Source: Neophaeotheca triangularis (taxonomy: Eukaryota). From it: a stretch of 64,000 nt of DNA. Positions within the stretch are counted from its first letter, which is position 1. Each line of letters starts with the position of its first letter. The notes under the pieces were generated by a model that saw only the letters and a list, made by a program, of their open reading frames with translations, did not search any database and had not been told where the DNA came from. The translations under genes were made by a program, and so were the position numbers. Positions 109 to 13,688 of this stretch are shown one piece after another. The stretch is from the NCBI GenBank assembly GCA_054600435.1, contig BAAIJX010000076.1:1-64000 (forward strand), given 5' to 3'.

Positions 109-1600
109 TCCTTTTTCCCATTCTTGTGGCGGCGCCACTATCGCAGTACCCTCCACTACTCCATCATCAAGCGCTCTTCCTGGCTCGAACGGCGGTGCGT
201 TGATGCATGCTCATCACCGCCACTCGGCCGCCCTTCCACCCGGCATTCGACGAGAGCTTCAGGTTTGGACGCAAAAGAGATCATGAGATAGATGTACCCA
301 CGGCTCATTAATCATTATCTTTGAATACCGTCTATCGGTACCGGAGCGGTGGTCGTAAACGAGATGTCCCGTGCTTCTTTCCCTTAAAAAGGGCAGGCGC
401 TACCGGCGTTGCAGATACAGCATCGGCGCAGATCTTTCGACGCAGCAGGCGCTACTTCCGGGGAAAGTGACATTATTGCCAGCTCTGTAGGTGACTCCTA
501 GACTTCCGAGAGCGGCGTCGCAATGTCGAGATATCTCCAGATATCTCATTAATGTCAGGCTTGCGGCTTGCCACGCATGCTTCGCCTGCCTCGGGTTATA
601 ACGGCGTTCACTAACCCTTCGACCGGGTGGGTGCTCGCAAGGAAACTTTCCAGTAGGTAGGCTCGTACGGTACGTGTAGATTGATTGTTCATCTCTCACT
701 GCAATGTCTCCCTGTCAGACCTCTGTCATTTCTACGCGTTCCTCATCGCAATCCTTTCCGCCATAATCTCGGATCCCTCTGCTGTGACGCTGGAGAGCAG
801 GGCATGCCATGACAAGCACCGTCACCGACGACAGCAGTGTAGGTCGCCAACGCACGATGGCTTTGGCTTGCTCTAGAGCACGTGTTGGATAAGTCATGCT
901 GTCCGCGTTCGCTGTTTGTCCCCAATGCCTACTGGAGAGCGCTGCGTCCATCGCAAGCTTCTCGTGCTAGATGCTTGACAGGTAGTTCGAGTCGCCTAGA
1001 ACTGTGAGCCCACGCTCCCCACGGCGTCGGCACCACCGGCTAAGGATACCACGCGCCGGCACTTCGGTCAGAAAATGCACTGCTTTGGAGGTATCATACC
1101 GACTTCGTACTCAGAAGGACGGTGTCGACTTGAGTTGCGAATGTACGAACATCGCCTATTAAAAGAAAGGTATGCGATTGGGTTATCCCTGCTAAGATAC
1201 AACACAACCACCGCAATTGGATATAAACCCCCTTGCAAACTCCACAGCAAGCGACAGCTAGATGGCGGAGCAATCTGTAGAAGCAGCGAATGGTTCTATT
1301 GCTTCTTTGGGGGTGGAGGACAGGGGGTGTGGGAGGTAGCTTCGGGGAGTAGAAGGCAGTGGGCAAAACTTTGCCTTCATGGCTTCTTGCTGTGGCGAGG
1401 GACGCCGAAGAATATCGAAGAAGAGCCCGGTCAGCAGACGTGAAAGTGAAAAGGGGCGTGGGGGTCTTTGTTGTTGAGGAAGCTTTTACTGGAAGGGGTT
1501 TCGTGATGCAAGGCTTGCGTTCAGGAGGGAGCGAGGGCCAGATGTATGGTTTGCGAGAAGTACATCGTCCAGCCTCCCTCTCCGCACGACAGCACTTGAT
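80..1600 (+). ncRNA. Candidate telomerase RNA (long structured ncRNA); ends approximate
   Basis: No credible ORF. CTAACCCT (611-618), the complement of 1.3 TTAGGG repeats, is flanked by stems 324-331/601-608 and 621-626/1064-1069. Nested helices, several with G-U pairs: 646-659/926-939, 627-639/1003-1013, 445-451/583-589, 468-475/550-557, 1242-1251/1386-1395. Pseudoknot and P6.1 were not unambiguously located. Confidence 0.5.
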
Positions 1601-1753
1601 TCTTCACCGTCGCCATCGCCGTCCGCGCCTGACGGCCTGAGGCAGACAGTGTAGCGGTTGCTGACTCAACTCACACCGCGCACAGACCCACTGCGCAGAC
1701 ACAAAACTGAGCTGCTCGTCCAGCTCTCTCTCTCTCTTCCTTTCCTTTCTTCT

Positions 1754-1995
1754 CCAGCTCTCTTTGCCTTTTGGCTTAGATCAAATTGTAGTATCTGTTC
1801 TGTAAGTGGCCTATTTAGGAAAGAACGACCTATGATGCAGAGACTGACTCCTTCCTCTTTTAGTTTCAGTTTAATCTCTGAAACGGTCCTACGGGACCTT
1901 CAAGATTATTCTTATTTTTGACACCGGATGGTGAGCTCCTGTGCTTGCGCATGCTCACCGTCACCGTGTTGCTGGTATCGCACCACTTCCAGCTG
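1754..1995 (+). ncRNA. U2: U2 spliceosomal snRNA with a 62-nt spliceosomal intron (1802-1863); ends approximate
   Basis: 5' CTCTTTGCCTTTTGGCTTAGATCAA, then GTAGTA (1788-1793) and TCTGTTCT. After the intron: stem IIa TTTCAG-TTTAATCT-CTGAAA, stem IIb GGTCC-TACG-GGACC, IIc complement AGATTA, Sm site ATTTTTG (1914-1920), stem III, and stem IV GCTGG/CCAGC with TATCGCAC in the loop. Intron is GTAAGT...CTGAC(1844-1848)...TAG. Confidence 0.95.
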
Positions 1996-2287
1996 ACGCG
2001 AAAGACTTTTTTCATCATGCTCTCGCTGCTTAGCGAGGTCTTGGAGAAGAAGTGAAGTCGTGATCATGTCGAGAATATCTGATAGAGTTACGCGTGTACT
2101 CATAGCAAGGGCACCTGTCTTCACAAATCGTAGATATTGGAACGGAAAGCCAATCAAGACGCCCTCGCGATGTTCTTAAAAGGGTGGATTTTCGAAGTTG
2201 TACGCACGACTTCACCCGCGCATGAACATCTAAACTTCACCACTGTATTCTGCATTACCCTCTTACTTGGCAGTGTCGCCCGTACAG

Positions 2288-3892
2288 ATGGCCGAACACC
2301 ACGCAGAATATCTGGAAAAGGGATACAGCAACACCAATGAGCGCTTGTCGGACATGCATCCCCCAGCGCGCAAGAGGCGCAAGTCAAACAGCGGAAGTGA
2401 AACCACGACAGGCAACCTTAGTAGGAGCCATCTCGCAGATTTGAACCAGGCTCGTCTCCTCCACACCATAGCCTCGGGGATAGAAATCCCTATCGAGAAC
2501 GACTGCATCCACGAGTGTGGTCCGACAGCTCTTCACATCATCAAAAATCGCCCAGATGAAGTGCTTCAGCTCGCTCATCAGAAGCTGCACACTTGGCCAT
2601 ACCGAGAGGTACCCGATTGCTGGCGTAGGCTCTACGAAGAAGCGAGTCTTCACAAGGTGTCAAAACTGCTCAAGGCCGCTGCCCTGGTCCCAGACGTGCA
2701 GGGAATGATCTCGCCAGTTTCGTCCACAAGCCCCGAAGGCTCATTGTTCGATCAAACTGTCCACCTGCTCGACATGGCTATTTTTCTCAGTGGTGCTCCT
2801 GGGCGCAAGGCCCTCATCGACTCTGCTTTCGAACAATTGTCCGGATGGTCTCATTACGACGCACGAGATTGTCCATCGCGTGATGGTATAAAATACAAGA
2901 CACCAGATATCCCCAAAATTAAGAGCCCGCATCCCATACAACGCCTTTCTTACTCTCTGGACCTCGAGAGCTTCCAAACCCACCTCGACACCAAGGCAAC
3001 ACCAATAATCATACCAGGACAACTGGAAGCCTGGCCAGCAATGGAGAAGTGGAAAGACCCGCAACACCTACTCGACCTGACCCTCCAAGGCCGCCGTCTA
3101 GTCCCCATAGAAATCGGACGAAGCTACACAGACGAAGGCTGGACCCAGAGCATTGTAAGATTCGGGGACTTCCTCCACGAGCACCTAATCGAAACACCAG
3201 CCGGGCACTCCCCAGCCCTCAAACCCAACAAGAACACCCCTCACAACGAAAACCCGAACAAAGCCCCAAACCACCCCAACCCCGAACCCCCAGAACCAAA
3301 CCCAAACCCAAACCCAAACCCAAACCCCACAGCCTACCTAGCCCAACACGACCTCTTCACCCAACTCCCCACCCTGCACTCCGACATCCTAACCCCAGAC
3401 CTCTGCTACACCGTCCCTCCACCACCAACACACCCGACGCCCGCCACAGCCACGGTGCCAACTCTCGAAGCCCCGCTGCTAAACGCCTGGCTCGGACCCC
3501 CCGGCACCCAAAGCCCGCTGCACACGGACCCCTACCACAACATCCTCGCGCAAGTCGTCGGCTGGAAATTCGTGAGATTGTACGCGCCGGGCGAAGGGGC
3601 CAAATTGTATCCTCGCGGCAAGACGGAGGCGGGGGTGGAGATGGGGAATACGAGTTCGGTGGATGTGAGTGGGGAGGTTGGGAGGGTTTTGGGGAGGGAG
3701 CGGGGTGGAGGGGGGAGAGGGCATGGTGGTGGAGAGGGCGTCGTGGACTCCTCCCAATGGCCGTTGTTTGGGGAGGCGGGGTTTCAGGAGGCTGTTCTTG
3801 GGCCTGGCGAGTGTTTGTATATTCCTGTTGGGTGGTGGCATTATGTTGAGAGTTTGAGCACGAGCTTTAGTGTGAGTTTTTGGTGGAATTGA
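2288..3892 (+). CDS. JmjC-domain protein, JMJD5/KDM8-like
   Basis: Motifs VPIEIGRSYTDEGW, YLAQHDLF, NAWLGP..T.SPLHTDPYHN and LYIPVGWWHYV...SFSVSFWW (HxD...H Fe triad). First ATG at 2288. Confidence 0.9.
   Translation: MAEHHAEYLEKGYSNTNERLSDMHPPARKRRKSNSGSETTTGNLSRSHLADLNQARLLHTIASGIEIPIENDCIHECGPTALHIIKNRPDEVLQLAHQKLHTWPYREVPDCWRRLYEEASLHKVSKLLKAAALVPDVQGMISPVSSTSPEGSLFDQTVHLLDMAIFLSGAPGRKALIDSAFEQLSGWSHYDARDCPSRDGIKYKTPDIPKIKSPHPIQRLSYSLDLESFQTHLDTKATPIIIPGQLEAWPAMEKWKDPQHLLDLTLQGRRLVPIEIGRSYTDEGWTQSIVRFGDFLHEHLIETPAGHSPALKPNKNTPHNENPNKAPNHPNPEPPEPNPNPNPNPNPTAYLAQHDLFTQLPTLHSDILTPDLCYTVPPPPTHPTPATATVPTLEAPLLNAWLGPPGTQSPLHTDPYHNILAQVVGWKFVRLYAPGEGAKLYPRGKTEAGVEMGNTSSVDVSGEVGRVLGRERGGGGRGHGGGEGVVDSSQWPLFGEAGFQEAVLGPGECLYIPVGWWHYVESLSTSFSVSFWWN
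3296..3327 (+). repeat. (CCAAAC)n hexamer repeat encoding (PN)n in the JmjC protein
   Basis: About five tandem units, in frame (PNPNPNPNPNP). Confidence 0.85.
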
Positions 3893-4063
3893 AGGGGGGG
3901 TTTGGAGGGGACGTCTTTCCATGGGAAGGGATGGGTGGTGTTTCAGAGGTGCTCTTTCTGCTTGTTCGCTAGAACGCTTCATTGCTTGTTGTGTTTTGCT
4001 ACGGAAATTTAATATACCCAGTGGTAGAGCTGCCTTGGCGCTCCTTTCTCGCCTTGGTGTTTT

Positions 4064-5459
<1,396 letters not shown>

Positions 5460-5888
5460 GTCGAATTGTTTCCGCTACAGAGGGTTGGTAGAGAAAGGAA
5501 AAGAAACGGTGATGTCGTTTGGTCCAGTGATGGTGTGGTGCTTGAGTACGTCGGCTTTAGCTGGTTTGGACCGAGGTCGTAAAGATCGGGTACCAGCGGC
5601 TGGTCGGACAAGAGGGCCAAAAGTGACATGTGAAAGTGCTTGTCGGATGACAAAATATCATTGTAGAGAGAACAACATCACTCGAGTGATTCAAATTTGC
5701 TAACAACTTCCCAAGCGGGAGAAGTAAGCGTCTGTCTGGCTCTGGGGAGTTTCCTCTCAGGCTAAGAAAGTGGATTGTGTATTTTCAATACAACAGAAGT
5801 GCTGTTCTACCTGTACGCAAGAAAGCAATCGCAACGCCCAACGCCTATTGCTATGCGCATGGCAACGCTTCAAAGAAGCCACTCACGG

Positions 5889-11845: not shown

Positions 11846-13688
11846 ATTGATAACGGTACAACAGTGGTAGACAACGACGACGGTATACCGAGAGTCCTGA
11901 GCCAGCAGATACCTCAAGCCACGCCGAGATTAGCCTCCTTACTTCAATACATGTAGTACGGTAGCACGTGTAGCGTTGCGGGGGACGCGTTTCTTTGACG
12001 AGGGGAATAACAATGAACGACAATAAGTCCGGCAGCCAAAGGAGTGAGACTGCTGGAACAAGGCACACACTGCTACACGAAAGTGGGAAGGGAGCGAAGA
12101 TGCACGGGCATGGACCTAGAGTAGATAGTAGGAGAGGAGAGGAGAGGTCTTTCGGTTCTCATACAGACGGACTACTTAGTTAATCGAGCCGGGGAGATTG
12201 ATACATTCGGCCAACGGCCTCCGTTTCAAGAATCAACCTGAAGCTGCAGCTTTAGCTTTAGCTCGAGCCCCCTTCTTCACGGCACCGCCCGGCGCAGGGG
12301 CTGAACCTACCCGCGAGCTACTAAGTAGTAGTACTCTCTTCCGACTTGGCCGAGACAAAAACTTCCGATTCTTCTCTTTCTCTCTCTCTCTTTCCCTTTT
12401 TTCTACGCACCAATGGCCCAACTTCCAATATCAACACACCACACTACTCGAGATACAAGACGTATAGATACGTGGATTGTTGTTGCCACATGCAGCTCGG
12501 ACTTCTTCCTTGCAACAATGATATCGAGATGGCCAATGCCTAGACCTCAAGGCTGACATCTATACATGGAATGGCTCGGTCTGCCATTCTGCTACTGAAA
12601 CGGCCCCAGGCTTCCTCTCACAATGCCCCGCAAGGCTCAGGCGTCCCTTGATCCAGGAGCTCACCACGGCTAAGTTCTTTCAACTTGATGCACACAACAC
12701 TCTCCTTGACGACGAACAAAGAGAACCCCACGAGCCCGGGCGTGTCAGCCATGAACCCCCTCGGGTATCGATACGCAACTAATCATCCCCCACTGCCCAA
12801 CTTTGCCAACACTCTGGCCTGACCTCCATACCTCTACGGTCCGGGCCTATTTTGGTGCAAAGAAGATCGAATGTAAACCCGCCCGATTACTCACCGCAAT
12901 GTCTCGCCTCGGCCGTGGGCACGGTGGTCCATATTTTGGGGCTACAACTTAGCTTAATTTGTACATTCTGTGCATGACCGATCAATATCTACAAGACTTC
13001 GGCAGCCGCCTGGCATGCTGATTTCGCTTTCTTATGTATCAGCCGACACCTTGAGATCTGTTCGTACCCGAGCGACAGATGCCCACACGTTCTTCGTAGT
13101 CGAGCTCATCGGTATTGTTCAATTTCTTGACATGCTGGGGTAACGTTGAAACTCGGGCGCCCCAGACGACCTGATCACGAAGATTCTCATAGAGTAGGCT
13201 TCGAAGTCTTTTCACCGTTGTAGGCAGAAGTGCTGCTTTGGTAGACCTGGCTCCTCGGACTAGTACTTTCCAGTTTCGCCAGGGATCTGTGATAGAGAAG
13301 CATTAGATGCCGTCCCCTCAGATTGACCGATAGGTATGCTAGCATTTCTCAGCATACCGTTACGTTAAGGTAGGTTGTTTAGGATGCCAGCTCGACATAG
13401 ATGAATCGATAGGGTTTCAAGCAAACCTACATTGTACGATATATGTTCTTTCCTCATACAACTCACGAGGTTTCAAGCGATAGGTATCCGTACGCCTTTG
13501 CGGGATAATGGTATCGTCGCTCTCGTATGCAACACCCAAACTCTGACCCTTTGCGCGCCTAATTCGGGTTTCGCGCCTCTCCATCGCGCTTTCACGTGCG
13601 CACTTTAGCCGAGCTTTCGCATCATCTCGACCTACTTCAACCTCGACAAAACGCAACGCACGTCCTCAAACATCCCAGTGACCTAGCG

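Follow-up and report, generated by a model that had tools for sequence, protein, structure and literature searches.

A fungal U2 snRNA gene interrupted by a probable spliceosomal intron between the branch-site-pairing region and stem IIa

The U2 snRNA gene in the 64-kb stretch of DNA analysed here (the window) is interrupted by a 62-nt block, which separates the extended branch-site-pairing region from the 5' strand of stem IIa. In our reading the block is a regular GT-AG spliceosomal intron, and the gene, which belongs to a Dothideomycete fungus, is functional and its transcript spliced; we assign to this reading a probability of roughly 0.7. The signals of the insert, the alignments and the predicted folds all enter into this estimate, as do the flanks of the gene.

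The U2 gene and its extent

The RF00004 covariance model (Rfam cmscan), run on the unspliced sequence, yields a single match at positions 1754 to 2008 of the forward strand. It covers model positions 1-192 of 192 with 103.4 bits versus a gathering score of 46 (E 9.3e-20), and only two non-canonical pairs are flagged. This full-length match bears out the interrupted U2 snRNA gene of the original prediction. The coordinates given there for the U2 features were all confirmed, with the exception of the gene end, which had been set at 1995; the gene continues to about 2008. No other RNA family was matched in 1-2400 by a permissive Rfam scan (E up to 1). At one place the match contains 79 nt where the RF00004 model has 16, and the surplus is one 62-nt block, exactly 1802-1863.

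The sequence and structure features which mark an RNA as U2 are all present, i.e., GTAGTA, stems I, IIa and IIb, the Sm site, and stem-loops III and IV. Exon 1 (1754-1801, forward strand, 48 nt) comprises the 5' end, stem I, the U6-pairing region, GTAGTA at 1788-1793 and 8 further nt (TCTGTTCT); it corresponds to positions 1-49 of the covariance model, and the profile HMM match described below ends at 1801. Exon 2 (1864-2008, forward strand, 145 nt) was delimited by the cmscan alignment, the MFE fold of the joined exons, and an inverted repeat (I4). It contains stem IIa (TTTCAG at 1864-1869 with CTGAAA at 1878-1883), stem IIb (1885-1889 with 1894-1898), the Sm site ATTTTTG at 1914-1920, stem-loop III at about 1927-1962, and stem-loop IV at about 1963-2000, each located by cmscan and the MFE fold. 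When joined, the exons are predicted to form stem I, stem IIa (UUUCAG with CUGAAA) and stem IIb, followed by the Sm site AUUUUUG and stem-loops III and IV. Stem IIa adjoins the branch-site region only once 1802-1863 is removed.

For comparison we used two intronless U2 loci from metagenomes, L078 and L104, which have the fungal-type 5' end CCAGCT...TTTGCC. In a MAFFT alignment the CCAGCT at the U2 start is common to the window, L078 and L104, and the sequences upstream diverge; the mature 5' end is probably located at C1754-A1756. The RF00004 scores of L078 and L104 are 116.9 and 73.0 bits, respectively. Thus, the window U2, insert included, scores within 14 bits of the former and well above the latter.

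The 62-nt insert and its splice signals

A 62-nt insert with a GTAAGT donor, a CTGAC, a pyrimidine tract and a TAG had been claimed, and all of these are present in 1802-1863 of the forward strand. The putative 5' splice site GTAAGT occupies 1802-1807 and begins 8 nt after GTAGTA. The candidate branch site CTGAC, which occurs once in the insert, lies at 1844-1848 with the branch A at 1847, 16 nt from the intron end. It is followed by a pyrimidine tract, a 12-nt run at 1849-1860, and by the 3' splice site TAG at 1861-1863, which holds the first AG past the branch A; exon 2 resumes with TTTCAG at 1864. The arrangement expected of fungal introns, i.e., a GTRNGT donor, CTRAY 10-30 nt before the 3' end, and YAG as the first AG past the branch, is what is found in the insert.

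The boundaries were also located by a profile HMM trained on 68 distinct intronless U2 genes from metagenome loci (77 full-length rows before removal of duplicates), with L078 and L104 kept out of the training set. On the genomic sequence this HMM produces two matches: its positions 14-49 are aligned up to 1801 (30.0 bits) and its positions 50-178 from 1864 onwards (36.8 bits). When the exons are joined, a single match to positions 14-178 with 85.8 bits takes their place. The claim that removal of the insert restores U2 therefore holds, with the break at 1801/1864 and stem IIa re-formed. Aligned by MAFFT with L078 and L104, the window displays a clean 62-column gap after GTTCT. It had further been proposed that routine searches may break up or overlook a gene of this type. 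Splitting is what the profile HMM does, whereas Rfam/Infernal finds the gene whole with 103 bits. HMM- or BLAST-based annotation would split the present gene.

How often do such signals occur by chance? A strict intron pattern (GTAAGT, 25-65 nt, CTRAC, 8-22 nt, YAG) has two occurrences on both strands of the 64-kb window versus a mean of 0.9 in 50 shuffles; splice signals alone are therefore unremarkable. The chance rate of the pattern is about 7e-6 per position, and its base-exact filling of the gap in U2 is far beyond chance. The insert possesses little structure of its own: its MFE is -4.6 kcal/mol, with a z-score of +2.19, and 199 of 200 shuffles equal or exceed its stability. When both strands of the 64-kb window were searched for a second copy, the insert matched only itself, the best other match being 12 nt. 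Group I and group II self-splicing intron families have no Rfam match in 1-2400 at E up to 1. In short, the insert bears every sequence mark of a local spliceosomal intron.

A comparison with other introns of the host was possible at one validated intron, which is located in a gene for a mitochondrial-type acetyl-CoA acetyltransferase (thiolase; about 4058-5474, reverse strand). Four metatranscriptome runs from three studies, marine or seawater, share 7-12% of the sampled words of 1400-5600. On this region their contigs are confined to 3954-4950, i.e., the 3' part of the thiolase gene. The thiolase intron (4271-4331, reverse strand, 61 nt) is skipped by the RNA contigs in three of the four runs. 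Its donor is GTAGGC, its CTGAC has the A 16 nt before the intron end, and a pyrimidine tract precedes the terminal TAG; accordingly, the U2 intron (62 nt) and this RNA-supported intron (61 nt) are of the same build except for the donor hexamer. A crude, frame-based list of candidate introns in the window has nine entries of 44-95 nt.

The thiolase gene also indicates what the host is. The best named relatives of a thiolase exon, with 78-82% identity, are from Saxophila, Vermiconidia, Meristemomyces, Baudoinia, Teratosphaeria and Salinomyces. Many more Dothideomycetes rank below these, Zymoseptoria and Cladosporium among those named, and the two relatives which were checked for taxonomy both belong to the Mycosphaerellales. 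The host is a Dothideomycete, probably in or near the Mycosphaerellales, and because its thiolase relatives are Dothideomycetes it falls within the Pezizomycotina, as the original prediction had assumed. The RNA contigs match the thiolase gene with 95-99% likeness; the fungus or a near relative is thus present in marine or seawater samples.

Flanks of the gene and alternative readings

Upstream, the U2 5' end is adjoined by a CT-rich tract (1719-1753, forward strand), presumably the core promoter or initiator. There is no TATA box within 220 nt upstream of the window U2, unlike in L078 and L104, which have TATAAA-type boxes about 38-45 nt upstream of U2. CT-rich, TATA-less core promoters are common in filamentous fungi, but the window does differ in this respect from both comparators. 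Inside the CT-rich tract resides one copy of an 11-nt direct repeat, TCCAGCTCTCT (family D1; 1719-1729 and 1753-1763), the second copy of which, 34 nt away, represents the first bases of U2. Slippage in low-complexity DNA may account for the repeat, as may a small duplication of the gene start. A 15-nt inverted repeat (I1; 1742-1756 versus 2042-2056, 87% complementary) brackets the whole U2 gene, its arms being a CT-rich leader and a GA-rich trailer. In a longer precursor the two arms could hold 5' leader and 3' trailer together by base pairing; alternatively, the likeness between these low-complexity runs could be due to chance.

Downstream, the DNA just past the mature U2 3' end can be aligned between the window and L078 (MAFFT), and in both it is predicted to fold into the same extended hairpin. 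In the window the hairpin spans 2004-2059 of the forward strand, with a U-run paired to GAAGAAG, a 7-bp apical stem with a GCUU tetraloop, and TCTTG at 2038-2042. The z-scores of -1.56 for the window and -1.03 for L078 are not significant individually, and because they are weak the hairpin is supportive and no proof of a live gene. That it is common to the window and an intronless U2 argues for a live gene. In Schizosaccharomyces pombe, according to the accessible part of a study, every Pol II snRNA gene is immediately followed by hairpins, which direct termination as well as cleavage by Pac1 (PMC8421224). By analogy, the hairpin in the window is presumed to be an RNase III-type signal for 3' processing and termination. 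A long open frame (2234-3892, forward strand) follows, its start about 280 nt past U2. A (Pro-Asn)n run is present in it around 3285-3336, and by eye its C-terminal part resembles a JmjC or cupin domain.

Alternatively, the locus may be a paralogue of U2 that is silent or of minor importance, or a pseudogene, with the cell supplied by one or more intronless U2 genes elsewhere; the intron would then be an inconsequential passenger. The missing TATA box would fit such a copy, and the copy of the gene 5' end 34 nt upstream hints at a local rearrangement. The RNA contigs of the four metatranscriptome runs would fit as well in that they lie off U2; since their cover leaves out the locus at 1754-2008, it is uninformative on U2 expression. 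Yet all functional elements of this U2 are intact and its stems pair, its score is close to that of an intronless fungal U2 in spite of the insert, the hairpin in the 3' flank is conserved, and none of the three splice signals is damaged. A pseudogene of very recent origin is possible. Overall, we consider it unlikely that the locus is such a dispensable copy.

A different alternative concerns the origin of the intron only. The intron may be real and stem from an introner-like element or another event at the DNA level, not from reverse splicing near the catalytic core. Introner-like elements are longer than regular introns and fold stably. At 62 nt the insert has a regular size, and it is less structured than nearly all of its shuffles. 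Because it is unstructured and present as a single copy in the 64-kb window, which is a weak test, the insert has the appearance of a regular intron and not of an introner-like element. The host does belong to the class in which these multiplying introns have been described, the Dothideomycetes (PMC4457414, as far as accessible). Taken together, an origin of this type appears distinctly improbable.

That the 62 nt are a lineage-specific expansion retained in mature U2 is more improbable still. The length of fungal U2 RNAs varies greatly, which would fit such an expansion. However, the known size variation occurs 3' of stem IIb and leaves the stretch from GUAGUA to stem IIa unaffected. Moreover, the insert is without structure of its own and carries a full set of 5' splice site, branch site, pyrimidine tract and YAG, for which the chance rate is that given above. 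An assembly or sequencing artefact which put an intron-like sequence into the U2 gene can practically be discarded, since exact restoration of U2 by a GT-AG removal is not expected of a misjoin.

Maturation of the RNA, precedents and relatives

If the locus is a working, spliced U2 gene, its expression might proceed as follows. RNA polymerase II would start just past the CT-rich tract and generate a precursor of about 255 nt plus a 3' extension, which would be recognised like a pre-mRNA. U1 would pair with GUAAGU and pre-existing mature U2 with ACUGAC, and the first AG past the branch, in the TAG at 1861-1863, would be chosen as 3' splice site. Excision of the 62 nt would join ...GUUCU to UUUCAG... 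and thereby create stem IIa beside the branch-point recognition sequence. Directed by the hairpin in the 3' flank, transcription would terminate and the transcript be cut in an RNase III-type reaction, after which Sm assembly would take place. As long as the 62 nt separate GUAGUA from stem IIa, the RNA presumably cannot function; therefore, the output of the locus would depend on an already working spliceosome. The U6 gene of S. pombe, a single copy with an intron, is known to depend on splicing in this way. The autoregulatory loop envisaged in the original prediction would, if true, be a positive feedback, i.e., more U2 leads to more spliced U2, and not homeostatic.

As an intron in an snRNA gene the insert adds to a known, rare kind. 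Introns in spliceosomal RNA genes were an early argument for a location of these RNAs at the catalytic centre and for reversible splicing. Like the window, the yeast Rhodotorula hasegawae (now Erythrobasidium hasegawianum) has a spliceosomal-type intron of about 60 nt inside a fungal U2. That intron is reportedly 60 bp long and is said to lie 'immediately downstream of the branch site recognition domain', which would be the same neighbourhood of U2 as that of the window intron. The two hosts are far apart: R. hasegawae is a basidiomycete (Pucciniomycotina), whereas the window is from a Dothideomycete ascomycete in which splicing of U2 is predicted from the sequence. In the accessible part of a 2018 review of U6 (PMC5855946), R. 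hasegawae is the sole case cited for a U2 intron (Takahashi et al. 1993, Mol Cell Biol 13:5613), which upholds it as the precedent named in the original prediction, and introns in U1 and U5 are cited from the same yeast. It also states that expression and splicing of intron-bearing snRNA genes are still to be validated.

Other small RNAs of fungi offer further likenesses. In S. pombe the single U6 gene has an intron (Tani and Ohshima 1989), and many more fungal U6 introns have been reported (Canzler 2016, cited in the accessible part of PMC5855946). As is proposed for the window, a core spliceosomal RNA must there be spliced itself. According to the same part of this review, the fungal U6 introns show no conservation beyond their canonical signals, and their positions cluster around functional sites. 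U6 differs in being a Pol III gene with introns near the catalytic centre, whereas the window U2 is of the Pol II, Sm class and its insertion site adjoins the branch helix and stem IIa. Fungal U3 snoRNA, like U2 a small and structured product of Pol II, has spliceosomal introns as well, and these are common in Ascomycota (PMC5832005). U3 is a different RNA, and U2 is absent from the list in the accessible part of that publication. A full-text literature search, with most subscription journals outside its scope, returned no report of a U2 intron in Pezizomycotina. In the accessible part of a paper on the ncRNAs of Aspergillus fumigatus it is mentioned that U2 'could only be partially aligned'.

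A second U2 intron, located in the same functional part of the RNA and found in a fungus of a distant phylum, would put the idea of an insertion hot spot to the test. It would also offer a tractable case of an essential splicing RNA which needs splicing to mature. The interest would be greater if the window harboured the sole U2 gene or if its insertion site coincided with the basidiomycete one. A tentative proposal, which we regard as rather unlikely, goes further: the fungus has no U2 gene but this one, and the intron arose separately from that in R. hasegawae, in a position just 3' of the branch-site-pairing region which is identical or almost identical in the two. Were both parts true, this spot in U2 would be a recurrent target of intron insertion, as the idea of reverse splicing predicts. 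Were it the sole gene, the production of U2 would depend on U2 itself, again a positive feedback. The proposal would also pose the question whether the GUAGUA of the precursor can engage the ACUGAC branch site of the same molecule in cis.

Relatives with the intron were searched for in metagenomes with the pattern GATCAANNNGTAGTATCTGTTCT, which also fits the common eukaryotic U2 form GATCAAAGTGTAGTA. The scan returned at least 124 U2 stretches at at least 123 loci. In none of the 124 U2 matches listed is GTTCT followed by GT; nearly all of these are non-fungal, and only L078 and L104 look fungal. In contigs of prokaryote genomes the pattern GTAGTATCTGTTCTGT retrieved 103 chance stretches, none of them U2. 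One of these (L195) passed a crude filter and was rejected as it was without U2 flanks. A scan of viral contigs gave no match. Neither L078 nor L104 has synteny with the window beyond the U2 gene. The best matches of a GMC oxidoreductase encoded at L078 are Eurotiales proteins with 51-57% identity, a level which identifies L078 as a Pezizomycotina-type fungus and nothing finer. Because this Eurotiales-like locus is intronless, the U2 intron is not universal in Pezizomycotina.

Several non-fungal U2 matches from the metagenomes (L083, L094; L001, L087, L090, L108) break off soon after GTTCT, or after stem IIa, and continue into unrelated sequence, and judged by this they are likely truncated U2 pseudogenes. 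Elsewhere in the window Rfam reports an H/ACA snoRNA, snR80 (RF01269), at 12797-12947 of the forward strand, matching the full model with 47 bits versus a gathering score of 40. Because a CTAAT is positioned just upstream, this snoRNA may reside in or beside an intron.
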